From positions 1 through 47,476 of the forward strand of contig JAGHJJ010000032.1 of NCBI GenBank assembly GCA_017886705.1: DNA of 47,476 bases, read 5' to 3'. The DNA comes from Bacilli bacterium. GTDB lineage: Bacteria > Bacillota_I > Bacilli_A > RF39 > UBA660. The notes below the pieces were generated by a model. It was not told the origin of the DNA, searched no databases, and saw nothing but the letters and a program-made list of their open reading frames with translations. The position numbers were made by a program, and so were the translations under genes. Every line of letters begins with the position of its first letter. The stretch's first letter is position 1. This document shows, piece by piece, positions 20,311-42,188 of the stretch.

Positions 20311-22308
20311 TTATATAGAATTAGAAGATGTTTTTTGAATTTCCATAACATGACCAGCTTTATGTAAATCCATATTCATCATAACCCGATTTTTTCTATC
20401 TATCAAATCATAATATACTCTAGTTGCTGGCGTATCTTCATGTTTACTTAATGAATCTTGCAAAGAATAAATTCTAAAGCCACTAAAAGTTTCATAATAA
20501 GTTCCAAATAAAGAATTTAACCCGTCAAAATTTTCCTGTCCAACAGTATCATAAATAAGCTCTATATTGCCATTCCTTCTACTTCTAATAATAGATTCTT
20601 GATTCTGTTCATAAAATTCTCTTACCAAAAACAAAGAATGTTCATAACTAGTAATATTTTTATACCGAGAATCTTTAGGGTCATCAAAAACAAAAACACC
20701 ATCATCATGCATCATTTTACAAATATCTTGGCTAATCAATTCGTTCATAATCTCATTAAATAACTCATAAGGTCTTTTTTCATCACTAATATGTACAGTT
20801 TCTGCAACATTCTTAGATTTTGCCATCGCTTCATTAAGTCTATCCCATCCTACAATAACACTATAATGATCATCATTAACATTATCTAAAAAAAGTTCAA
20901 ATAAATGATTTAACTCATGAACAATATCATGATCATTAAAATTACTATCATAATCCCCTTTTACAAGCAACAAAGATGACAAATCATAACCATTAGATGT
21001 TAAAGTAACATTAGGATTAAGAAAAGTTCCATGTTTTTTATAAATAGCAGCATCAAAACTATCATTTTTATCTAACAAATTTCTTTCTTCTATTTCCTGC
21101 CTTATCTTTTTATTTTCTGGTAAACTGTCAAAATACTCATTATGATATTGATTTAAAATTTCATCATGAGAATTCTGTAACTGCTCAATTCTTTCATAAG
21201 AAGGCCAAATTGCTTTCACTTCTTCTTTATCTAAATAATCTTCATAACGGTCTCCAAAATCTATTCCATTAGCTTTAAAATAAGATATTCTTTTATTCTT
21301 AGTCTCACTAACCAACCATGCTCTAGCATCCTTATTATGAAGCATCTCTTCATTTTCCTTAGAAAAAGCAAATAAGGAAATATCCCCAAATAAAGAATAA
21401 CCAAATACATCCTTAATATAAGAATTTAACTTATAAGAATTATTAGGATTTTCAAAAAACTCTTCTAAGCCATCCCTTTTATCAACAGGTATCAAATCAA
21501 GATTTTCTTGAATAAACTTTGCATAATATTTATCTCGTAATCCATAGTCTAAATTTTCTGCATCACTAACATAATCCGTATAAGATTGAAACTTACTCAT
21601 ATATAAAGAAAACTCATCAAGTGCACCTGCATATCTTTCCACCAACTGGTTTAAATCTAAAAACTTCGATTCTTGTAATTTCTCATTAAAATTATCCTGA
21701 GTAATAGAAGAATCAACTTTACTTAATAAGGGAAGCGAAGCTTGAAAAGCATCCAAGTATTTTTTTGTAATATTATTAGAATCAAAAACATAATCAAAAT
21801 TCCCCTTTAACCATAAAGGAAGTGAAGCATATTCATTTGGAATTTCCTGTTTTTGAACAATATCCATAAAATCATCAAAAGTTAATTCTGGTAAATATTT
21901 ATGAAATACCAAATACTTTTCCTGATAAAATTCATTTTTTCTACCATCTTCTCCTAATTGATATAATTTATAAAACTCTAAATACTTATGAATAGGCTGA
22001 AGACTACTATAAGTAAACTCATAATCAGAAAATAAATCCTCCTTCGTAAGAGAAACTGAACTATCTTTAAGTAAAGAATCGATAAGTTCATTAGATTTAC
22101 CTTTAGCAATTTTATTTAAAATTGTTTTTATTCTAGCTGGCTCCTGATGTCCTATAAAAAGACACTTACTAAATTTTTCTTCTATCTCTTCTCTAATACC
22201 TTCTCCATAAAACTTACTATAAAAACGAATAAAGTATTCTTTAAAAACATCAATATGATCTCTCAAATATTGATTAAAATCCAAAAACTTTAATAATCTA
22301 TCTTCCAT
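20311..22308 (-). CDS. large cytoplasmic protein with a single HExxH motif (putative gluzincin-like metallopeptidase, unknown family)
   Basis: HELNH is at nt 20905-20919. Candidate third ligands lie in ELFNEIMNE about 55 residues downstream. No signal peptide or TM helix. ATG at 22308 has an AGGTGA SD and overlaps the upstream gene by 11 nt. Confidence 0.6.
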   Translation of the reverse strand: MEDRLLKFLDFNQYLRDHIDVFKEYFIRFYSKFYGEGIREEIEEKFSKCLFIGHQEPARIKTILNKIAKGKSNELIDSLLKDSSVSLTKEDLFSDYEFTYSSLQPIHKYLEFYKLYQLGEDGRKNEFYQEKYLVFHKYLPELTFDDFMDIVQKQEIPNEYASLPLWLKGNFDYVFDSNNITKKYLDAFQASLPLLSKVDSSITQDNFNEKLQESKFLDLNQLVERYAGALDEFSLYMSKFQSYTDYVSDAENLDYGLRDKYYAKFIQENLDLIPVDKRDGLEEFFENPNNSYKLNSYIKDVFGYSLFGDISLFAFSKENEEMLHNKDARAWLVSETKNKRISYFKANGIDFGDRYEDYLDKEEVKAIWPSYERIEQLQNSHDEILNQYHNEYFDSLPENKKIRQEIEERNLLDKNDSFDAAIYKKHGTFLNPNVTLTSNGYDLSSLLLVKGDYDSNFNDHDIVHELNHLFELFLDNVNDDHYSVIVGWDRLNEAMAKSKNVAETVHISDEKRPYELFNEIMNELISQDICKMMHDDGVFVFDDPKDSRYKNITSYEHSLFLVREFYEQNQESIIRSRRNGNIELIYDTVGQENFDGLNSLFGTYYETFSGFRIYSLQDSLSKHEDTPATRVYYDLIDRKNRVMMNMDLHKAGHVMEIQKTSSNSI

Positions 22309-22609
22309 AAATATCACCTAACAACCTCTTAAAGATGGCATAATTAGCTGGAAAAACGCCCTTGCCATGATAAACATCTTCTACTCCTTGAGAATACACC
22401 TTAATAGTAAACTCTTCTGCATCTATTTGCTGTGAACTACCATATTCATTTTTAAAAGTATAAAGTATATCTTTTAATTGCTTTAAAAACAAATCATCTA
22501 CTGAATATTTTTTATCATTTATATAACATATCTTATCTTGATAAACAACAAGAGCACTAACTTGAGGAAGAATTCCATTACTAATATTTATCTCTATCAT
22601 ATCAATCAT
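22298..22609 (-). CDS. small hypothetical protein translationally coupled to the HExxH protein
   Basis: ATG at 22609 has an AGGTGA SD. Its stop lies inside the start region of the next gene. Confidence 0.5.
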   Translation of the reverse strand: MIDMIEINISNGILPQVSALVVYQDKICYINDKKYSVDDLFLKQLKDILYTFKNEYGSSQQIDAEEFTIKVYSQGVEDVYHGKGVFPANYAIFKRLLGDIYGR

Positions 22610-30896: not shown

Positions 30897-31613
30897 TTAA
30901 AGTACTGCCGTATCTAATGCCAATTCTATCATCTGATTTAGTGATGTCTCTCTCTCCTCACTAGAAAGACTTCTCTTATCATAAAAAGAATCAACAACAG
31001 TCATCAAACAACTAGCTTCTCTACCTAGTTTTTTTGCAATATAAAACAAACCAAAAGCTTCCATTTCTACAGCTAAATAATCATCCCCTGGAAAATTAGT
31101 TCGAAAGACATCTTCACTATCTGTATATAAATCAAACACATCACTAGTAATAGTTTTACCAATTTTTACAGGAATATGTGCATCATCTGCAACTTTTTTA
31201 ATTTTATCATTCAAATTATGACTTGCTTCAATGTAATTAATATCTTGATTATCGAGCAACTGATCAAAATAACTTTTACAATAAGCACCAGTAGATAAAA
31301 CTACATCTAATAATTTTACATCTTTATGAAAAGAACCAGACGTACCAATACGAATAATTTTTTCTACATGATAAAACTTATATAATTCATAAGAATAAAT
31401 TCCAATACTCGGAACTCCCATACCAGAAGCAAATACGGTAACTCTCTTTCCCTTATAATATCCAGTATATCCGAACATATTTCTAACAGTATTAATTAAT
31501 TTATAATCCGTTAAAAAATTTTCTGCAATATACTTGGCACGTAAGGGATCTCCTGGCATAAGTACAACTTCTGCAATATCTTCTAACTTACTTTCTATAT
31601 GTGGCGTAGCCAT
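30897..31613 (-). CDS. deoD: purine nucleoside phosphorylase, DeoD type
   Basis: MATPHIE...VVLMPGDPLRAKYIAENFL and the VEMEA block closely match hexameric DeoD. Confidence 0.92.
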   Translation of the reverse strand: MATPHIESKLEDIAEVVLMPGDPLRAKYIAENFLTDYKLINTVRNMFGYTGYYKGKRVTVFASGMGVPSIGIYSYELYKFYHVEKIIRIGTSGSFHKDVKLLDVVLSTGAYCKSYFDQLLDNQDINYIEASHNLNDKIKKVADDAHIPVKIGKTITSDVFDLYTDSEDVFRTNFPGDDYLAVEMEAFGLFYIAKKLGREASCLMTVVDSFYDKRSLSSEERETSLNQMIELALDTAVL

Positions 31614-31678: not shown

Positions 31679-32329
31679 CTAATTACTACTCTTAAACTTC
31701 TGATACCATGACTTAACACGTTCCTTGACATTATCTTTACCTTCTCTAAAATCATCACCAACTTGATCTTTAATATCACCTAAGGCGTGATAATTCTCTT
31801 CTCCCAAATAATTCTTAATCTTATCTAACACAGAAAGATAAATATCACTAACAAAATCTGAGGCAACTTGATACTTTTCCGATAAGTCTTCTCTCCAATT
31901 AGGAACAAACTCATCTCCTAAATCACCAATAGTATCAATACTATTCATAGTAATCTCTTTTCCCTCTGCAGTTAAATCATCAAAATAAACACCCTTAATT
32001 GGTTCATCATAAAAAATAAAATCAACACCTGTAATAAAAACATCTTTAATTTTACTTTTTGCTTCTTCTATTCTTTCTTGTTGAATAAACTCTTCAATAC
32101 TAGATAAATCAGAAGAAAAATAATCAAAAGAATTATCTTCTAAACTTTCTTGACCAGTATCGTAAGAATCTAGAGAATCATCTACTCTACTATCTTCGCT
32201 CTCCTGATTCAAAGAAGCAGATGGCATATCCAAATTATTAGATGACTGACCACATCCAGAACAAGAAAGAACAACGCCTCCACTTAATAATAAAACTTTT
32301 AAACTTGTAAAAATACGAACTTTCCTCAT
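31679..32329 (-). CDS. putative lipoprotein, acidic, unknown function
   Basis: Signal peptide with a lipobox-like VLSC/SGC. Asp/Glu/Ser-rich mature N-terminus. Confidence 0.55.
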   Translation of the reverse strand: MRKVRIFTSLKVLLLSGGVVLSCSGCGQSSNNLDMPSASLNQESEDSRVDDSLDSYDTGQESLEDNSFDYFSSDLSSIEEFIQQERIEEAKSKIKDVFITGVDFIFYDEPIKGVYFDDLTAEGKEITMNSIDTIGDLGDEFVPNWREDLSEKYQVASDFVSDIYLSVLDKIKNYLGEENYHALGDIKDQVGDDFREGKDNVKERVKSWYQKFKSSN

Positions 32330-32337
32330 ATTACCTC

Positions 32338-33255
32338 CTACTTAACTTTTTGCATAGCAATACTACTTTGATAAGAATCAATAAACCCGTCACCAGAAAT
32401 AGTATCAACCAAAGCATCACCATTATTTAAAAAATCAACTAAAGAAGAATAATCATCAGCATGTTGTGATACAAAATCAGAAAAAGGCAAAACTTGATAT
32501 TCAGATAAATTAGGAACTTTGCTTCCTCTTAATAAATCCACTTGATAAATAGAAGGACTAATTCCTTCTTGATATTGATCAACTAAATAACAATAATTAG
32601 AATTATAAACAACATCAACATCTTCTACCGGAACATAATTGATATAGCAAACATTATCCTCCGTACTAGAAACTCTAGAAACACCAAGATATTTTTTCTG
32701 CTCATATGTTGCTAAATCAAAAATAGTACTATCAACTTCTTGTAATATTTTTTGACTATCAAAAATTGTAAAATGTAAATACTTATCACTAACAGCACTA
32801 GAAAACAAAGTTGAGTAGCTTTCCATATATGCAGATAAAGGAATCACTTCATTCAACACAAGATCATCTGGAACAGCTCTATCTCGTAAATAATCGTAAT
32901 AAGTATTATACTTTCTTCCTTCTTCATAATCCTTTACAATATAAAAACTATCACTGGCTGTAAGAACAGAAAAAGAAGAAAGTGGCATATACCGAATACA
33001 GACAGAATCAGAATAAGAATTAGCATCATAAGAACGAACTAAAAAACCAACATAATCTTCTCCTAATCGAAAGGCTTCCTGACTTACTTCACCCAGACCA
33101 TATTCACCCTCTTCAGCTTCTTCTACTACTTCCTCTATAACTTGACTATCCTCTTCAGCAATAGGAACACTCTTAGTATTCTGACATCCAACCAAAGACA
33201 TTCCTGTAAAGAAAAATCCACTCATAATAGATAATTTTTTAATATGTTTTTTCAT
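32338..33255 (-). CDS. putative lipoprotein, unknown function
   Basis: MKKHIKKLSIMSGFFFTGMSLVGC contains the lipobox LVGC. I chose the internal ATG. Confidence 0.55.
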   Translation of the reverse strand: MKKHIKKLSIMSGFFFTGMSLVGCQNTKSVPIAEEDSQVIEEVVEEAEEGEYGLGEVSQEAFRLGEDYVGFLVRSYDANSYSDSVCIRYMPLSSFSVLTASDSFYIVKDYEEGRKYNTYYDYLRDRAVPDDLVLNEVIPLSAYMESYSTLFSSAVSDKYLHFTIFDSQKILQEVDSTIFDLATYEQKKYLGVSRVSSTEDNVCYINYVPVEDVDVVYNSNYCYLVDQYQEGISPSIYQVDLLRGSKVPNLSEYQVLPFSDFVSQHADDYSSLVDFLNNGDALVDTISGDGFIDSYQSSIAMQKVK

Positions 33256-33365
33256 AATTGTAATCCTCATATTTTCTTCTTAATAAAGAGAAAATAAGCT
33301 TTCTATTTAATAACATACTATACATCAAAATTTGGAAAAAGAAAAGGATAAACTCCTCTTCTTTA

Positions 33366-35742: not shown

Positions 35743-36858
35743 TTATAATACTTTTTGATAAACTTTATTATTCCCAGAAAAATCCCAATGAATTCCTTCT
35801 TCTTTAGTAATATGATAATTATTATCACATCGTAAAAAATCAACATCCATAGAAGAAACACTACCCTTTTCATAATGCAGATAAGAAAGATAAGCAACAA
35901 CACCTCCTAAATTATATTTACTAGTAGAAGGAACTCCTAAATAAATGATTTGTTTTTCAGGAGTAAAAGGACAATTAGAACTATAAATAAAACCATTATG
36001 TAAATGAGCAGACCATAAAACATCATGGCGATTATCTAGCCAGCGTTTTTCTTGTGCTAAATCATCAAGACCAGAGATTTTCACATCAGGTCGAATCCAA
36101 CTAAAGTATAACCGGTGACTAAAATGCATAGAAATATTAGAATCATGAGAAAGATTAGGAAAATTAATAATAAACTTTTCTCTAGGAATAACGAAATAAC
36201 TAGGTCGATAACTATTTAATCCTCTTAAATCAAAAGTATAATGTTGCCTATAATCCACTCTAGGATGAAAAAATCCTTGAATAAACTCATCATGATTTCC
36301 AATATTAGCATAAGTTCTCATCTCCCTAGGAGATGGATTAGGATAAAAAGAAATAAAAGAATTAAGCTGCTCAAGCATTTCCTCTTTAGAAAATATTTTA
36401 TTCTTGTCTTTTGGTCCATGAAACTGATCTCCTAACAAAAAACATACAGTAGCTCCTTCTCCAATGACAAAGTCATATAAGCTATCTAACATACGAAAAT
36501 CTTCAAACTCTGGATTTCCAATATGTGTATCAGCCATATGCATAAAAATCTTATCAGAAACACAATCATCCACCGTAAAAGAATAATGATGTCTAGAATA
36601 AGAAGAATTACGAAGTCTAGAACTATCGATATAAGAATACACTGCTCCTTGATTCCAATAATCATCTCGTTGAATAGAACCTTCATAAGTAAGTAAATCT
36701 GAAATAACGCCAAAAAAATCTTTATCATCAAGCAAAATTCCTTTCGCTTCTAACAAAGATTTTAACTCTAAATCAGTAATACCATCCGGATGTTGCTGGA
36801 TTATATCACAAACCGTACAATATAAAGGCAGTCTCTTGTAGTAATATTCAAAATCCAT
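35743..36858 (-). CDS. calcineurin-like metallophosphoesterase with about 100-aa N-terminal extra domain
   Basis: Contains MADTHIG (DxH), LLGDQFHG (GD), GNHDE (GNHD/E) and SAHLHNG. ATG at 36858 has an AGGTGA SD. Confidence 0.75.
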   Translation of the reverse strand: MDFEYYYKRLPLYCTVCDIIQQHPDGITDLELKSLLEAKGILLDDKDFFGVISDLLTYEGSIQRDDYWNQGAVYSYIDSSRLRNSSYSRHHYSFTVDDCVSDKIFMHMADTHIGNPEFEDFRMLDSLYDFVIGEGATVCFLLGDQFHGPKDKNKIFSKEEMLEQLNSFISFYPNPSPREMRTYANIGNHDEFIQGFFHPRVDYRQHYTFDLRGLNSYRPSYFVIPREKFIINFPNLSHDSNISMHFSHRLYFSWIRPDVKISGLDDLAQEKRWLDNRHDVLWSAHLHNGFIYSSNCPFTPEKQIIYLGVPSTSKYNLGGVVAYLSYLHYEKGSVSSMDVDFLRCDNNYHITKEEGIHWDFSGNNKVYQKVL

Positions 36859-36936
36859 ATACTTCACCTATTAGTAAAATATTATAATGGATTTAAATCA
36901 AAGATACAATAAATTTTTATTTATGATTAACTTCAC

Positions 36937-37518
36937 TTACACCGTCATTAAAAAAATAGTATCTAACTTTTGTTTTAAATCTTTTGCAGCAAGACTTCTA
37001 GCACTGCACTGATTCTTCTCATCAAAAGTTAACTCAGCTAAAGTCTTCCCATTAGGAAGTTCAAAAATAGAGTCAAACCCGAAACCAAGTTCTCCTCGAG
37101 GAAAAGAAGCAATTCTTCCTTCTAATATACCCGTACCAGTAATAGGCTTCTCTAAAGAATCATAATACACTAACTGACAAACAACTTTAGCACTCCGATT
37201 AGATAAACCTTGACATTTTTCTATAATTGCTAAATTTCTCTCCTCATCAGTAGCATTCTCTCCCAAAAAACGATGCGTCATAACTCCAGGCCAGCCATCT
37301 AGAGAATCAATGCAAAGACCGGAATCATCAGCTAAAGATGCCTGCTTCGTAATAGAATAAACTTCCTTAGCTTTCTTAGTAGCATTTCCTAAAAAACTAT
37401 CCTGGTCTTCCAAAACATCAACACTAACAGAAACATCTGCTAAAGATAAAATTTCATAATTTGATAATATCTCTCTAATTTCTTTTAATTTTCCCTGATT
37501 ATTAGTTGCAAAAATCAT
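36937..37518 (-). CDS. rdgB: non-canonical purine NTP pyrophosphatase (RdgB/HAM1 family)
   Basis: IFATNNQGKLKE and GELGFGFDSIF signatures. The start lies 8 nt after the upstream stop and has an AGGAGAA SD. Confidence 0.9.
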   Translation of the reverse strand: MIFATNNQGKLKEIREILSNYEILSLADVSVSVDVLEDQDSFLGNATKKAKEVYSITKQASLADDSGLCIDSLDGWPGVMTHRFLGENATDEERNLAIIEKCQGLSNRSAKVVCQLVYYDSLEKPITGTGILEGRIASFPRGELGFGFDSIFELPNGKTLAELTFDEKNQCSARSLAAKDLKQKLDTIFLMTV

Positions 37519-37526
37519 AAATTCTC

Positions 37527-38417
37527 CTATTTCATAATAATATCTTTTACTTTTTCTACTTGTTCATTTAATGTTAAATTAGTACAGTCTACTAAAAACA
37601 ATTTCCCTTCTAACATATCATGTTCCATCATATATTGATAGGTTTCAAAATAAAGTTGATTATATTGATAAGCCTCTTTATCAAAATCACTAATTACATC
37701 TCGCATAGAAATTCTACGTTCCAATTCTATCTTATCATAATTTACTAAAAAAACAACTTTATCATCATGAGTTTTTAAATATTCTCGATATCGTTTTACC
37801 CTTTCTTCCATAGGAACAGTAAATAACATATATTTAGAAAACATATCCATAGAGCGATCTTTACAAATAATACCAGACAAAAGAAGTCTCTGAATAGTAA
37901 CACTCTTTCCTACCGCATCAGTTCCTTCAATAATTGTAGAATTAGATAAAATACTTCCCTGATAAATTTCACTATTTTCATATCTTTTATTACCTGTAAC
38001 TTCCACAAATCCCTTAGGAGGCTGATATCCATCTAAAGAAGCCTCATCACTAGCTACTTCAACCATAATCATAGAAACCGGCTCTAAAAAACAGTCAACA
38101 TCAATATCATAAGGACCATCTTTATAATATTTACGAATTTTGCGAATCTTTCTACCTGTATCTCGTAAAACTTTTGTAAACTCTTCTTCACTAATCTCTA
38201 CAACATCAGTAACTTTACCCTGTTTAAAATTTCTAGTATATTTCATCTGCCCGTGATCATTATATCTACGATACTTATAACCATTACAAAAGGTCTGCGT
38301 TAGTTCATACTCTTCAATTTCCCTCATACTACCTAAATATTCTTCTAAAAAATTTTCTTTAGTAGGAATAAATTTTCTTTCTTCATTATTGAGTTTACCA
38401 AGTCTTAAAACTACCAT
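37527..38417 (-). CDS. CYTH-domain :: Tmk-like P-loop kinase fusion protein
   Basis: Residues 10-150 carry CYTH hallmarks: NEERKFI (a variant of ExExK with Asn in place of the first Glu), RKIRKYY, DIDVDCF, MVEVAS and VEVTGNKRYENSEI. Residues 160-296 start with IIEGTDAVGKS (nt 37902-37925). This matches the EGTDxxGK P-loop of the Tmk-like gene at 11980..12648. Confidence 0.75.
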   Translation of the reverse strand: MVVLRLGKLNNEERKFIPTKENFLEEYLGSMREIEEYELTQTFCNGYKYRRYNDHGQMKYTRNFKQGKVTDVVEISEEEFTKVLRDTGRKIRKIRKYYKDGPYDIDVDCFLEPVSMIMVEVASDEASLDGYQPPKGFVEVTGNKRYENSEIYQGSILSNSTIIEGTDAVGKSVTIQRLLLSGIICKDRSMDMFSKYMLFTVPMEERVKRYREYLKTHDDKVVFLVNYDKIELERRISMRDVISDFDKEAYQYNQLYFETYQYMMEHDMLEGKLFLVDCTNLTLNEQVEKVKDIIMK

Positions 38418-39769
38418 GTCATCTTTCCTTTCTCAAAATATTCTAAAACATCATCCGTACCAGAAACTGGAATCTCCACAACATTTTCTTTCCCTGCAAC
38501 TAGTCTTGCAGATACAATAGGATACCAATTAGAAGACTTAAGTTCATAGGAAACACTATCCTCCACTTGATAAAAAATAATAATTTTTTTCTTCTTAAAT
38601 GAAGCATAAGTAAGTTCTGTAATACTCCCTGGACTTAATTTTGAATCAAAATAAGCAATAAAAATATCACACTTATCAATCAAATCATTTTCTGTTTGCA
38701 CCACCTCACTGCAAACAGAAGAAGTAAGATTTCCATCACTAGCCATTTCATTATAAAAAGGACCTAAATATTGATATAACAATTTACCATCACTATTTTT
38801 AATAAAGCTATGATTATTAAAATTAGTAAAATCATCTTCATTTCCTATCAATTTAGCACGAAAATCTTCCTTCAAAGTAAATCTTTTTTCATCTACCATT
38901 TTCTTATTAAATTGACAAGCAAAATAAACCTTAGGTAAAAACGGAAGTTCTACATCCTCTAATTGATAATTAACAAATCGATTACCATAATAAACCAAAT
39001 CAGAAAAACCATACTTCATCTTTTTCCAAGAAAAGTATACTTCATGTTTGTCATCAACTTTCCAAGAAAAAGTATCATACGCTTCTCCTGAATAAGTAAA
39101 ATTCTGATCTAAAATTGCTTTAATTTCTTCTCTTTTATCTTTTGATATTGCATTTTCTACAATCCAAAGTGAGCGAGGATTATCAACAAGACCAGTTTTA
39201 GTATTCACATTTAAAAGCTTTAAAGCAAGTGTTTCTATATTAGGATATTTTTGTAAAAACGCTTTTATTTCATCAACCATTTTAGAATAATTACTTTTTA
39301 ACAAAACATAATTGAGACGAATCCTAGCCTTAGAAAATGCATCTGTTTGAAAATAATTATGATCATATCCTAACACATTTCTATCTAAATTCGTATCAAT
39401 AGATGTCGTAGTAACTTCAAACACCCAGTTATGAGAAGTAAAAAGATTATACTTTTCTGCTTCTTCCTTTCGAAATATATTTCCTGAAGTTAATACTCTT
39501 TTTACCGGAATATCATAATCATCGAATAATTCAACTATTTCTTTCAACTTTTTGAAAGAATGTTTTGTTGGCTCTCCATTACCACCAATCGTTACATAGT
39601 GAAATTGATACCCTAGTTCTTTTAACTGCCCAACATACAAACTAAGCATATGAATATCATCTTTTACTACTTCCCATTTTGTAATTTTAGCAGTGCAATA
39701 AGGACAATTCTTATCACAAGAAAAATCACTTAAAATAATTTCTAATTCCTTAAACTTTTTTTCTTTCAT
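38411..39769 (-). CDS. radical SAM domain :: nucleoside 2-deoxyribosyltransferase/TIR-like (SLOG-type Rossmannoid) fusion protein
   Basis: CDKNCPYC (CX3CX2C) is at nt 39695-39718 and IGGNGEP lies about 40 residues later. The C-terminal roughly 170 aa (nt 38414-38932) has KVYFACQF, GPFY and CDIFIAYFDSKLSPGSITELTYA, which resemble the NDT-fold core with its conserved Glu. ATG at 39769 has a GGTGA SD and overlaps the pnuC stop by 20 nt. The track start at 39826 is TTG. Confidence 0.7.
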   Translation of the reverse strand: MKEKKFKELEIILSDFSCDKNCPYCTAKITKWEVVKDDIHMLSLYVGQLKELGYQFHYVTIGGNGEPTKHSFKKLKEIVELFDDYDIPVKRVLTSGNIFRKEEAEKYNLFTSHNWVFEVTTTSIDTNLDRNVLGYDHNYFQTDAFSKARIRLNYVLLKSNYSKMVDEIKAFLQKYPNIETLALKLLNVNTKTGLVDNPRSLWIVENAISKDKREEIKAILDQNFTYSGEAYDTFSWKVDDKHEVYFSWKKMKYGFSDLVYYGNRFVNYQLEDVELPFLPKVYFACQFNKKMVDEKRFTLKEDFRAKLIGNEDDFTNFNNHSFIKNSDGKLLYQYLGPFYNEMASDGNLTSSVCSEVVQTENDLIDKCDIFIAYFDSKLSPGSITELTYASFKKKKIIIFYQVEDSVSYELKSSNWYPIVSARLVAGKENVVEIPVSGTDDVLEYFEKGKMTW

Positions 39770-40346
39770 TTGTATCACCATTTCCTTTTGCTTCTTTATG
39801 CCATGCCCAAAAAGTACCAAGTGCAAGTACTACCCAGATAATATTTAATGCCATTAAATAAATTGCCTTATCTGGTAAAGTAAAATAAACATAAGCCATT
39901 AAAATATCATCTACAAACCAAACAATCCAAGAATCAACCCGCTTAAATGCCATCATTAATGTTGCAGTAAATCCCATTCCCGTAGTAATAGCATCCAAAA
40001 AAGGAGATGGATCATCAGTAGATTTTAAAAACATATACATTCCTACACTAATTCCCAAAAACATAACACAATAAAATATTCTTTCTTTAAAATTACAATA
40101 ACGAATTTTATTTTCATCTCCAAATATCTTCTTAGAAATATTGATAGAGTACCAAGTAAATAAACCTAATAGTCCAAAAATAACATAAACTAAATTTTCT
40201 ACAACATCTCCATAAAGTTTAGCAGTAAAAGAAAAGACAGTTAACGTAACAATATTTAGTAAATAAAATATCCAATTTTCCTTTCTTTTAAACAAAATTA
40301 AAATACTTTGTATTAAACCACAACAAGCAGTAAAAATCTCTAACAT
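39750..40346 (-). CDS. pnuC: PnuC-family (nicotinamide riboside/nucleoside-type) uptake permease, substrate unknown
   Basis: Seven predicted TM helices. Family blocks include ENWIFYLLN, LYGDVVENLVYVIFGLLGLFTWY, PFLDAITTGMGFTATLMMAFKRVDSWIVWFVDD and GTFWAW. The ATG overlaps the upstream stop (ATGTTAG). Confidence 0.85.
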   Translation of the reverse strand: MLEIFTACCGLIQSILILFKRKENWIFYLLNIVTLTVFSFTAKLYGDVVENLVYVIFGLLGLFTWYSINISKKIFGDENKIRYCNFKERIFYCVMFLGISVGMYMFLKSTDDPSPFLDAITTGMGFTATLMMAFKRVDSWIVWFVDDILMAYVYFTLPDKAIYLMALNIIWVVLALGTFWAWHKEAKGNGDTNERKKV

Positions 40347-41182
40347 TTCTTATACTCCTTCGATGAACGATTTACAGGCAATAAAGCTGAATAAGTAGAA
40401 ATAAACCCTAAAGAAACTTCACTTATAAAACTTTCTACTCTACTTTTATCAAAAACATTCAATGAACTATCTTCTACTTGATAAGACTCTTGAATAAATG
40501 TCGCTGTCTTAGAAATAACACTAATAATATTTTGATAATCTACCTCTTCAATTCCAGGATTAACAAAATCCAAATCAACATTTTCAAGTAATTTCTCTAG
40601 ATTAAAACAAGTTCCATACTGTTCTAACAACAACTTATTCATGACTGTGTAATCATGATAAATACTAACATTGCTATCATGACTCCAAAACTCTCCTACT
40701 GGATAAACTTCTCCACTCTTTTTCACTCGCATAGAAACCAAATCAGCAATATACTTTGTCTCAATTCCATCCTTATCTAAACACTCAAAAGTATCATTAA
40801 ACAAATCATGAAAGAACATTTTATCAACATATAAATGATACAAATATCCAAGAGCAGTATAATCTTTGCTAACAAAATCCTGATATTTTTCTATAAAGCT
40901 AGAAACATTAGGTGCTTGAATAGAAAGTTTATAATCTTCTTTATCCCGAAAATGAGTACTTCTCTTTTCCTCTTGCGTCTCCGCTCTCATTTTCTTTTTA
41001 AATGCTTTTTGTTCTTCAATACTCAAATTATCAGGAATTTGTTTTTTAATTCTAGAAGAATCAACAATCAAATTACCTAATAAAAATTGTTTTTTAGCAA
41101 CATCCGATAATAAAACGCCCTCTCTTTCCAAATTGTTTAAAAACGCTTCACCTGCAATATGGTGAATAACAAATGATGCCAT
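40340..41182 (-). CDS. soluble His/Asp-motif protein, possible metal-dependent hydrolase (zinc phospholipase C / P1-nuclease-like?), first gene of the operon
   Basis: N-terminal VIHHIAGEAF, then LGNLIVDS, STHFRD and LYHLYVDKMFFHD. These are spaced like metal-ligand motifs. The family assignment is tentative. An AAGGAG SD lies 7 nt upstream of the ATG. Confidence 0.45.
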   Translation of the reverse strand: MASFVIHHIAGEAFLNNLEREGVLLSDVAKKQFLLGNLIVDSSRIKKQIPDNLSIEEQKAFKKKMRAETQEEKRSTHFRDKEDYKLSIQAPNVSSFIEKYQDFVSKDYTALGYLYHLYVDKMFFHDLFNDTFECLDKDGIETKYIADLVSMRVKKSGEVYPVGEFWSHDSNVSIYHDYTVMNKLLLEQYGTCFNLEKLLENVDLDFVNPGIEEVDYQNIISVISKTATFIQESYQVEDSSLNVFDKSRVESFISEVSLGFISTYSALLPVNRSSKEYKKC

Positions 41183-41297: not shown

Positions 41298-42188
41298 ATG
41301 AACATAAATTTTGAATTATATAAAACATTTTATAGTGTCGCAAAAAATCAAAACATAACAAAAGCAGCTAGAGAACTCATGATAAGTCAACCAGCTGTCA
41401 GTAAATCCATAAAAACATTAGAAGAACAACTAAACTGTTCTCTTTTTATCAGAAACAAATACGGTGTGACTCTAACCTCAGAAGGCCAACTATTCTATGA
41501 AAACATAAAACTTGCTATAGAAATGATTGAACATGCAGAAGATGAGCTACAAGAGACATTAAACTTAGAATATGGAACACTATCCCTTGGTGTAAGTAAT
41601 AGCTTAACTCAGAACTATTTGTTGCCATATATTAAAATATTTCATGAAAAATATCCTAATATTAAAATCAAAATATCAACATCTCCTACTTTTCAACTAA
41701 TTACTCAAGCAAGAAATGGTCTAATTGATTTCATCATATTAAACCTTCCCTATAAATTACCATCAGACTTTAAAGAACAAAGGTTAAAAGAAATACATGA
41801 TTGTTTTATCGCAAATAACAACTGGTCCGAACTAAAAAGCAAGACAATAGACCTAGAAAAATTACAAAACTATCCTTTAATTTTATTAGCTAAAGGTTCA
41901 AATACTAGAACATTCTTAGATGAAGTTTGTGAAGAACATAATATATTACTAAATCCTGAAATGGAACTAGCTAGTTACTCTTTAGTAGTAGCTTTCACCA
42001 AAATAGGCCTAGGACTTGGCTACGCTACCAAAGAATTCATGCAACAGGAAATAGACTCAAAAGAATTATTTGAAATAAAAACAAATCCACAAATTCCACC
42101 ACGGTCTATAGGTGTAACGCATTTAAAACAAAAACAACTAAATAAGGCATCTCTTGCCTTCTTAGACCTATTAAAAGAAAAAAATTAG
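41298..42188 (+). CDS. LysR-family transcriptional regulator
   Basis: The N-terminal HTH is FYSVAKNQNITKAARELMISQPAVSKSIKTLEEQL. The C-terminal domain is of the substrate-binding type. ATG at 41298 has an AAGGAG SD. The track N-terminal extension is non-coding. Confidence 0.9.
   Translation: MNINFELYKTFYSVAKNQNITKAARELMISQPAVSKSIKTLEEQLNCSLFIRNKYGVTLTSEGQLFYENIKLAIEMIEHAEDELQETLNLEYGTLSLGVSNSLTQNYLLPYIKIFHEKYPNIKIKISTSPTFQLITQARNGLIDFIILNLPYKLPSDFKEQRLKEIHDCFIANNNWSELKSKTIDLEKLQNYPLILLAKGSNTRTFLDEVCEEHNILLNPEMELASYSLVVAFTKIGLGLGYATKEFMQQEIDSKELFEIKTNPQIPPRSIGVTHLKQKQLNKASLAFLDLLKEKN

Follow-up and report, generated by a model that had tools for sequence, protein, structure and literature searches.

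A radical SAM protein joined to a nucleoside 2-deoxyribosyltransferase-like domain, and the permease-linked gene module to which it belongs

Radical S-adenosylmethionine (SAM) enzymes and the nucleoside 2-deoxyribosyltransferase (NDT) superfamily are both known already, and NDT-type hydrolases of cytidine monophosphate (CMP) occur together with radical SAM enzymes, as separate proteins, in the blasticidin and mildiomycin pathways. Here we describe an open reading frame (ORF) in which the two are joined. It lies on the minus strand, at 38411 to 39769, of a 47,476-nucleotide stretch from a gut Bacilli bacterium (contig JAGHJJ010000032.1 of assembly GCA_017886705.1; the whole stretch is referred to as the window), and it belongs to a module that unites a PnuC-like permease, an NDT-like protein and a radical SAM protein. 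An earlier reading, made from the DNA alone (the sequence-only reading), knew of no characterised enzyme that couples radical chemistry to an N-glycosidic-bond domain, and we too found no named family or paper on the pairing: no counterpart to the module, to its fusions, to its confinement to gut bacteria with small genomes or to its isolated radical SAM clade is described in Pfam, NCBIfam, PHROGs, PADLOC, the PDB or the searchable literature.

The described enzymes closest to the C-terminal half are MilB, BcmB and BlsM, its best matches by both profile and structure. They share with it the fold, the nucleophilic Glu, an acidic residue in mid-domain, the Ser-x-Gly phosphate contacts and a stacking Phe, and in their antibiotic pathways they work beside a radical SAM enzyme (BlsE, itself a fold match). 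The present family differs in having Tyr in place of Phe17, an insertion of about 45 residues between the beta-1 motif and GPFY, and, in the window, a fusion to the radical SAM domain. Its setting is also different - primary-metabolism operons of gut bacteria rather than antibiotic clusters of Streptomyces or Clostridium - and among the conserved neighbours of 67 loci there is no MilA/ThyA-type hydroxymethylase or cytosylglucuronic acid (CGA) synthase. DNPH1/Rcl likewise resembles the C-terminal half in its Tyr in beta-1, a phosphate-binding Ser, the pattern S-x-G-x-x-x-E-L and, as we predict here, a substrate of the deoxynucleoside monophosphate type. A theme of pool sanitation is shared as well, with RdgB and endonuclease V as neighbours here. 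However, no DNPH1 chain is found among the PDB matches of the NDT-like profile, and the specificity is in our case a prediction.

Viperins and prokaryotic viperins (pVips) with CMPK2-type kinases resemble the module as proposed here, in that a radical SAM enzyme acting on a nucleotide sugar is coupled or fused to a cytidylate-type kinase. The likeness is nevertheless distant: the NCBIfam model viperin_w_prok, with its cut-off of 180 bits, matches 4 of 23 radical SAM members and gives them no more than 17 bits, no viperin is among the top 50 fold matches, the partners here are a permease and an N-glycosidase, and the context is not that of a defence island. In Clostridioides difficile, the hydrolase QueK is of the IUNH type. 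With QueT and QueL this gut bacterium offers the same combination as the module: an importer of nucleosides, a hydrolase of N-glycosidic bonds and a radical SAM enzyme. The transporter there is, however, an energy-coupling factor (ECF) S-component where that of the module is a Pnu protein, and no queuosine genes surround the present module. The three C. difficile genes are encoded side by side (YP_001088185-187; PMC11570991), and the QueK family has been described merely as unrelated to Qng1. Finally, Pnu transporters work by facilitated diffusion and metabolic trapping (PMC5749112), and PnuC-NadR pairs, including that of phage NARP3, place the uniporter beside substrate-trapping enzymes much as the module does (PMC13464706). 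This layout is shared by PnuN, a predicted deoxynucleoside-uptake subfamily (PMC7749635; PMC5749112). The trapping partners in the module are, however, radical SAM and NDT-like proteins, not the NadR kinase/adenylyltransferase, and there is no upstream NrdR box in the window, where matches occur at chance frequency and none falls in the promoter region.

The fused protein and its module

The ORF encodes 452 amino acids plus a stop, in a translation free of internal stops, and is not a chance ORF, because a search of 5.8 billion proteins (E <= 1e-3) returned 258 homologues and 80 columns are invariant across 44 full-length fused relatives. About 80 of the homologues are fused over their full length (46-99% identity), and many others are proteins of about 275 residues that match just the N-terminal 60% of the fusion. 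A longer frame opens at TTG 39826; homologues start at, or within about four residues of, ATG 39769, and the Shine-Dalgarno-like GGTGAT lies 5 nucleotides upstream of that codon. Among the invariant residues are C18, C22, C25, G62-P67, D302, R304, E360, S379, G381 and E385. The AlphaFold2 model of the protein has a mean predicted local distance difference test score (pLDDT) of 91.2 and a predicted template modelling score (pTM) of 0.88, and Foldseek recovers the same two fold classes, radical SAM and MilB/NDT-like, against BFVD as against the PDB. Single-sequence matches in Pfam and NCBIfam are sub-threshold (Nuc_deoxyri_tr2, E 6e-4; Radical_SAM, E 0.07; HxsC, E 1.8e-5), and we therefore base the domain assignments on motifs, profiles of the family and the model. 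A PDB sequence search with the fusion found just BcmB (4jen, E 9.5e-4) and MilB, both through the C-terminal part, and by sequence the protein aligns end to end with no characterised radical SAM family in NCBIfam, Pfam or the PDB, which agrees with the sequence-only reading.

The N-terminal half (residues 1-278; 38936-39769, minus strand) is, by its motifs and model, a radical SAM core with a single cluster: a partial TIM barrel with a C-terminal beta region and one [4Fe-4S] site. CDKNCPYC, to which the sequence-only reading had drawn attention, indeed occupies 39695-39718 (residues 18-25) as a CX3CX2C cluster motif. No substitution of C18, C22 or C25 occurs among 44 fused and 23 mixed family members, and these share no further invariant Cys in this half that would suggest an auxiliary cluster or SPASM domain. 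The second peptide singled out there, IGGNGEP, is found at residues 61-67; it includes the GGE-type SAM-binding motif GGNGEP (residues 62-67; 39569-39586), of which GNGE is invariant in all forms. In Foldseek searches of the PDB the best match is MoaA (1tv7, E 4e-8), followed by SuiB, anSME, TigE, BlsE, HydE, BioB and NifB, those to SuiB, anSME, BlsE, HydE and BioB being at probability 1.00. The suggestion of an AdoMet radical core in the first 280 or so residues is thus supported by both motifs, the model and the fold matches. For PF04055 the window protein scores 13.7 bits against a gathering score of 29.5, which its relatives P0363 (33.8) and P0390 (32.9) pass. A profile of the radical SAM part alone gave no real match to PDB sequences, and an NCBIfam scan of 23 radical SAM members produced weak, scattered matches to the cluster region, with no family consistently found. 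The clade is small and isolated, since an exhaustive search of 1.84 billion cluster representatives with a hidden Markov model of this part retrieved just 160 clusters at E <= 1e-3, of which 47 reach E <= 1e-30.

The C-terminal half (residues 279-452; 38414-38935, minus strand) is placed in the NDT superfamily, close to MilB and BcmB, by profile and fold matches. In the PDB, a profile made from 33 aligned fused and stand-alone versions matches BcmB (6.7e-10), MilB (1.9e-5), BlsM (8e-5) and NDTs (about 3e-3), and Foldseek returns the CMP N-glycosidases MilB and BcmB and NDT at template modelling (TM) scores of 0.6-0.75, normalised to the target; against PF05014 and PF15891 the window protein scores 20.6 and 18.0 bits, with gathering scores of 30 and 28.8. 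The sequence-only reading had taken this block, which begins with KVYFACQF at residue 280 (nt 38932) and contains CDIFIAYFDSKLSPGSITELTYA (residues 367-389), for an NDT/TIR-like Rossmannoid domain. Both peptides are present as described, and the modelled fold is Rossmann-like and of the NDT/MilB kind, neither non-Rossmannoid nor a SPASM/auxiliary-cluster domain. The NDT part of that assignment consequently stands, but the TIR part finds no support, as no TIR entry is among the top 50 PDB fold matches.

The NDT nucleophile motif (S/D-x-G-x-x-x-E-L/I-G/x-x-A) appears in this half as SPGSITELTYA, in which the invariant Glu385 (38615-38617) aligns with the catalytic Glu103 of MilB, and Ser379-Pro-Gly381 (38627-38635) is equivalent to the 5'-phosphate contacts Ser97 and Gly99. 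The family motif V-Y-F-A-G-K-F aligns with MilB F17-L-G-G-P-F22-R23, and the invariant F287 of the window protein corresponds to the base-stacking F22, E360 to D78, and the invariant Tyr282 of VYFA (38924-38926) to Phe17, which determines ribo- or deoxyribo-specificity. All 33 aligned members carry Tyr (VYFAG) at the latter position and not the Phe of ribo-type enzymes; in MilB, the substitution F17Y switches specificity from CMP to deoxy-CMP (dCMP) (PMC4081090, reporting the MilB-hydroxymethyl-CMP structure). By inference from these residues, and by analogy with DNPH1/Rcl, the C-terminal half would be an N-glycosidase or transferase for a 5'-phosphorylated sugar that lacks the 2'-hydroxyl. 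The sequence-only reading had allowed for either a catalytic domain or a binding module, and of these the former appears more likely, because the nucleophile E385, the Glu of ITELTYA, is invariant.

What can be said of the origin of the fusion? We combined context look-ups with a scan of one genome per species of the Genome Taxonomy Database (61 loci), and mapped ORFs in all loci. At 67 loci PnuC-like, NDT-like and radical SAM genes follow one another without interruption, in many cases overlapping, and the permease gene lies immediately upstream of the others wherever the locus is complete. About 50 species encode the permease, the NDT-like protein (about 170 residues) and the radical SAM protein (about 275 residues), in this order, by separate and often overlapping genes, and in our ORF mapping of the loci the fusion of radical SAM to NDT is confined to the clade of the window (L001-L005 and L009-L016). 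The window fusion is a lineage-specific joining of two adjacent genes; the single polypeptide that had been thought unusual is thus real, but not a one-off. At L006 and L007 the permease, radical SAM and NDT genes, in that order, are separate, and the 169-residue ORF there is 32% identical to the C-terminal half of the window protein.

Other fusions are known from the same family. P0361 and P0363 carry the two domains in the reverse order, NDT first, and P0058 is a three-domain fusion in which a relative of the 296-residue protein encoded next to the window fusion precedes the radical SAM-NDT pair. P0392 and P0393, of a sister clade, combine the radical SAM domain with a cytidylate kinase (PF02224, E 7e-15 and 2e-9), and in P0387 the radical SAM domain has a weak MazG/PRA-PH-like tail (PF01503, E 0.046, under the gathering score). 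Because independent fusions occur in both orders, the sequences argue strongly that the radical SAM and NDT parts are functionally, and probably physically, coupled. P0080, a candidate triple fusion of permease, radical SAM and NDT, was rejected, its N-terminal 200 residues not being PnuC-like.

The window is 99% identical to a gut metagenome-assembled genome (MAG) labelled 'uncultured Mycoplasmatota'. All carriers are MAGs from animal or human gut, and their labels are Bacilli, Tenericutes/Mycoplasmatota, Clostridia, Alphaproteobacteria (including Ca. Enterousia) and Gastranaerophilales, and there is one divergent match in a Ca. Uhrbacteria genome. The module is a stable operon across several phyla, in dozens of gut species that are uncultured and have small genomes, and it therefore probably supplies a nutrient or nucleotide that its hosts cannot make. 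If its substrate were identified, a new reaction of radical SAM enzymes, acting on a nucleoside or nucleotide, would be defined; a new salvage route (for a B3-type compound, a deoxynucleotide or a modified nucleoside) could also come to light, as could a specificity that is new among Pnu transporters. For reconstitution, the natural fusion in the window has the convenience of being a single polypeptide.

Candidate reactions of the two halves

Because the radical SAM domain of the sister clade is fused to a kinase, the substrate of the N-terminal half would be a nucleotide. The MazG/PRA-PH-like tail, the best PADLOC match ('viperins associated with kinases', pVip; E 6e-6, 24 bits, residues 17-175), the likeness to the GTP-using MoaA and eight invariant Lys/Arg residues point to the same conclusion. 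With both folds, the conservation of catalytic residues, obligate gene linkage, fusions in two orders and nucleotide-enzyme partners established, we favour, at rather less than an even chance, a reading in which a single nucleoside, imported and phosphorylated, is worked on by one half after the other, with radical chemistry on the sugar first and cleavage or exchange of the base second. The nucleoside, for which cytidine, a deoxy-type nucleoside and a pyridine riboside are candidates, would enter through the PnuC-like uniporter and be trapped by phosphorylation, through the adjacent triphosphate-tunnel/nucleoside monophosphate (NMP)-kinase protein where this is present. The radical SAM half would cleave SAM reductively, and the resulting 5'-deoxyadenosyl radical would abstract a hydrogen from the sugar, leading perhaps to a dehydration or deoxygenation of ribose of the kind carried out by viperin, AprD4 or ribonucleotide reductase (RNR). 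Pyrophosphatases and phosphoesterases (RdgB, the CYTH protein and others) could then yield the 5'-monophosphate, on which the MilB/DNPH1-like half, which has the nucleophilic Glu, a phosphate site of the form Ser-x-Gly, a Phe for stacking and a Tyr of the deoxy type, would attack C1' by way of Glu385, such that the base is released or exchanged. In this scheme we infer the order of the steps, the sugar chemistry, the phosphorylation state and the direction of transport.

Several points weigh against this. The residues of the NDT-like half were mapped onto MilB at about 19% identity, and similarity to viperin is far under family thresholds. The operons of Alphaproteobacteria and Gastranaerophilales have no kinase, and their NadM-like, NrtR-like and CofE-like neighbours point to NAD metabolism, not to cytidine or deoxynucleotides. 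What a cell would gain by removing the base from a nucleotide modified by radical chemistry is left unexplained. The reading also draws on sequence, model and gene context, and places its substrate at candidate level.

The main rival, unlikely though we judge it to be, takes the NAD-type neighbours at face value: the permease would import nicotinamide riboside (NR), a form of vitamin B3, or a close analogue, and the radical SAM and NDT-like proteins would process NR or nicotinamide mononucleotide (NMN). For example, the labile nicotinamide-ribose bond could be put to use as an activated source of (phospho)ribosyl groups and so feed an adenylyltransferase of the NadM type. The permease in the window (198 residues; 39750-40346, minus strand, overlapping the fusion gene by 20 nucleotides) scores 77.5 bits against the NCBIfam PnuC equivalog TIGR01528, over its cut-off of 42.45, and keeps the WxxW motif. 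A NadM-like NMN adenylyltransferase (NMNAT) is encoded within the operon at 25 loci, and at 16 loci an NrtR-like Nudix/winged-helix protein is encoded by a gene that often overlaps the radical SAM stop codon, indicative of translational coupling; NrtR genes are usually located with NAD genes, including pnuC (PMC2330246). Yet both assignments are below family cut-offs - the best NCBIfam matches of the NadM-like protein are all to NMNAT models, with E down to 5e-15 - and relatives of NrtR control pentose pathways too. The deoxy-type Tyr in the NDT-like pocket does not suit NR, radical chemistry has no known role in its use, and scans at Rfam gathering level over the window and 16 related loci revealed tRNAs and one group II intron alone, with no riboswitch, that for NAD+ included. 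As regards the permease itself, Asn189, the sole NR contact common to the Neisseria mucosa and Escherichia coli PnuC proteins, is Asp in 66 of the 67 module permeases. An argument from four changed N. mucosa contacts, to the effect that the permease cannot bind NR, was for the most part dropped and reduced to N189D, because E. coli PnuC also lacks three of them. A search for permease homologues found close relatives alone (at least 58% identity), with no outgroup.

A second alternative, which we regard as improbable, is that the radical SAM half is a maturase that modifies the NDT-like half post-translationally, installing a radical or an altered residue. It is small (275 residues) and has a single cluster, as befits an activase, and the protein and peptide modifiers anSME and SuiB are among its fold neighbours. 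Moreover, the NDT-like half has a conserved loop, GPFYxExASxGxxTSxxC, that is a possible target and is modelled with low confidence (pLDDT below 50 at residues 341-344). However, in L006 and L038 the radical SAM partners keep all invariant residues even though the loop, with its Cys, is absent or has diverged, and the radical SAM proteins of the sister clade are fused to cytidylate kinase and have no NDT partner. Nor is there a glycyl-radical motif, and the NDT-like half retains its full hydrolytic/transferase catalytic set.

Improbable too, and ranked below the maturase, is a viperin-like role in defence or as a source of antimetabolites, whereby the radical SAM half would make a toxic or chain-terminating nucleotide, the NDT-like half detoxify the monophosphate and the permease export the nucleoside. 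The weak pVip match, an association with kinases that recalls viperin and CMPK2, the presence of the module in one megaphage lineage, and HipA, AAA and UvrD genes near it in L004 are compatible with such a role. Against this, housekeeping genes flank the module at a chromosomal position that is conserved in several species; the module is also a widespread and stable operon in reduced genomes, where it is found alongside a porin, an NMNAT and regulators, and it matched no PADLOC system significantly. A tblastn search of 50,697 records of isolated phage genomes found no match, and in IMG/VR the module is present on a single 416-kb contig (L070). The megaphage-like lineage comprises L006 (a 166-kb contig) and L070 (an uncultivated virus genome, UViG, the 416-kb contig); its permease, radical SAM and NDT are three genes, and its NDT copy is without the conserved CEQASNG..C loop.

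More of a long shot is an RNR-independent route to deoxyribosyl compounds. The NDT-like Glu would capture covalently the (phospho)ribosyl group of an activated imported riboside (NR or NMN), the radical SAM half would remove the 2'-hydroxyl by radical dehydration or reduction, from the covalent intermediate or a bound nucleotide, and the deoxy-type pocket would hand the 2'-deoxyribosyl group to ordinary bases. If true, this would account for the obligate pairing, the fusions in two orders, the deoxy-type Tyr and the Pnu permease, and also for the NAD-type neighbours, the kinases and RdgB and endonuclease V as guards against deoxyinosine. The loci examined contain no NrdD glycyl-radical motif, which is uninformative at about 20 kb per genome.

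A non-orthologous form of queuosine salvage is very improbable. Here the permease would import queuosine, the NDT-like protein free queuine and the radical SAM protein convert this to preQ1, following the same three-part logic as QueT, QueK and QueL (transporter, hydrolase and radical SAM lyase side by side) in hosts that are likewise gut-dwelling; a missing substitute for QueL has been noted in streptococci (PMC12632869). But neither tgt nor queA is near any locus, no preQ1 riboswitch was found in the window and the 16 related loci scanned, the neighbours concern NAD and nucleotide phosphates, and the pocket is deoxy-type. Least probable of all, the NDT-like half might just clear 5'-deoxyadenosine, with a radical SAM substrate unrelated to it. 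This by-product inhibits radical SAM enzymes, and a tight 1:1 coupling would make sense on such a view, but a Ser-x-Gly phosphate site and a MilB-like, cytosine-type pocket are unsuited to the task, the window has a PNP_UDP_1 gene 7 kb away, comparable fusions are not known from other radical SAM families, and the permease is left unexplained.

Neighbouring genes in the window and elsewhere

In the window the fusion gene is part of a minus-strand block running from 41182 to 35743, with overlaps of 7, 20 and 7 nucleotides, that encodes in order a 280-residue protein, the permease, the fusion, a 296-residue protein, RdgB and a 374-residue relative of metallophosphoesterases. Promoter and terminator scans of the operon were at chance level, and no internal terminator is predicted. 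The first gene (40340-41182) has no Pfam or NCBIfam match; its product is weakly related (E 2e-4, through GYLxHLxxDKxF) to a Zn-dependent phospholipase C-like protein of other versions of the module. On the plus strand, divergent from the operon, lies the gene of a LysR-type regulator (41298-42188, probable start 41298), which is kept beside the operon in the clade of the window.

The 296-residue protein (37527-38417, overlapping the fusion gene by 7 nucleotides) is a CYTH/triphosphate-tunnel protein with a P-loop NMP-kinase-like domain. Its model has a pLDDT of 92, the N-terminal CYTH domain resembles the triphosphate tunnel metalloenzyme (TTM) of Sulfolobus acidocaldarius and NE1496 (E about 6e-7), and the C-terminal P-loop domain matches guanylate kinase (2anc) and the kinase-TTM module of Arabidopsis TTM1 (7z67). 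Compared by domain content, this protein and plant TTM1 have the same two domain types. The family is a tight one, with 156 matches at 55% identity or more, all unnamed in databases. RdgB/HAM1, a pyrophosphatase of non-canonical purine NTPs, is encoded at 36937-37518 and has counterparts at 19 related loci. The 374-residue protein (35743-36867) is without a family match itself; a homologue in L003, 30% identical to it, is a calcineurin-like metallophosphoesterase with a weak N-terminal match of winged-helix type (DUF4423_like, E 0.024, under the cut-off), and 15 related loci have such a gene.

Clustering of neighbours across the 67 loci shows that the DUF5662-like HD-type small protein is the commonest accessory (32 loci), followed by the NadM-like protein, the CYTH/kinase protein (22 loci), RdgB, a CofE (F420 ligase)-like protein (18 loci), the NrtR-like protein, the metallophosphoesterase and an OprB porin (14 loci). 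In L072 the order is permease, CYTH/kinase protein, a fusion of NDT to radical SAM and, directly after the fusion, endonuclease V (L072:6728-7405). Two themes are apparent among the neighbours: the handling of nucleotide phosphates and sanitation of hypoxanthine (kinase, CYTH, RdgB and endonuclease V), and salvage of the NAD type (NadM-like, NrtR-like and Pnu permease). The occurrence of endonuclease V in L072 and of RdgB at 19 other loci suggests that the pathway brings with it a danger of hypoxanthine or inosine incorporation into nucleic acids.

The PNP_UDP_1 phosphorylase/nucleosidase gene of the window lies at 30897-31613, and three further minus-strand ORFs (20311-22317, 31679-32329 and 32338-33270, of 668, 216 and 310 residues) have no Pfam match at E <= 1e-3. 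In L004 the database-called gene directly upstream of the permease (L004:6342-7253) has two in-frame stops under translation table 11, which could reflect an alternative genetic code, recoding or a pseudogene. The DUF5662-like gene (L053:8921-9439 and 31 other loci) encodes the pattern H..HD..K...H..HH...DWE, and a literature search on DUF5662 found nothing relevant; two Bacilli have it as a fusion with a DHH/DHHA1 phosphoesterase (L036:3134-4078 and L059:12248-13465). The protein of the CofE family (F420-0:gamma-glutamyl ligase) has 397 residues and a large insertion (L043:7724-8917 and 17 other loci of Alphaproteobacteria and Gastranaerophilales), and is odd to find in gut bacteria from which no F420 synthesis is expected; its gene sits between those of the NadM-like adenylyltransferase and the DUF5662-like protein. 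Lastly, in the sister system at L071:951-3785, a fusion of cytidylate kinase to radical SAM is followed by a hydrolase with the metallo-beta-lactamase (MBL) fold, which has a Pfam match of the Anti-Pycsar Apyc1 type, and the third ORF at this locus, of 188 residues, opens with ELEICVK, a CYTH-like ExExK motif.

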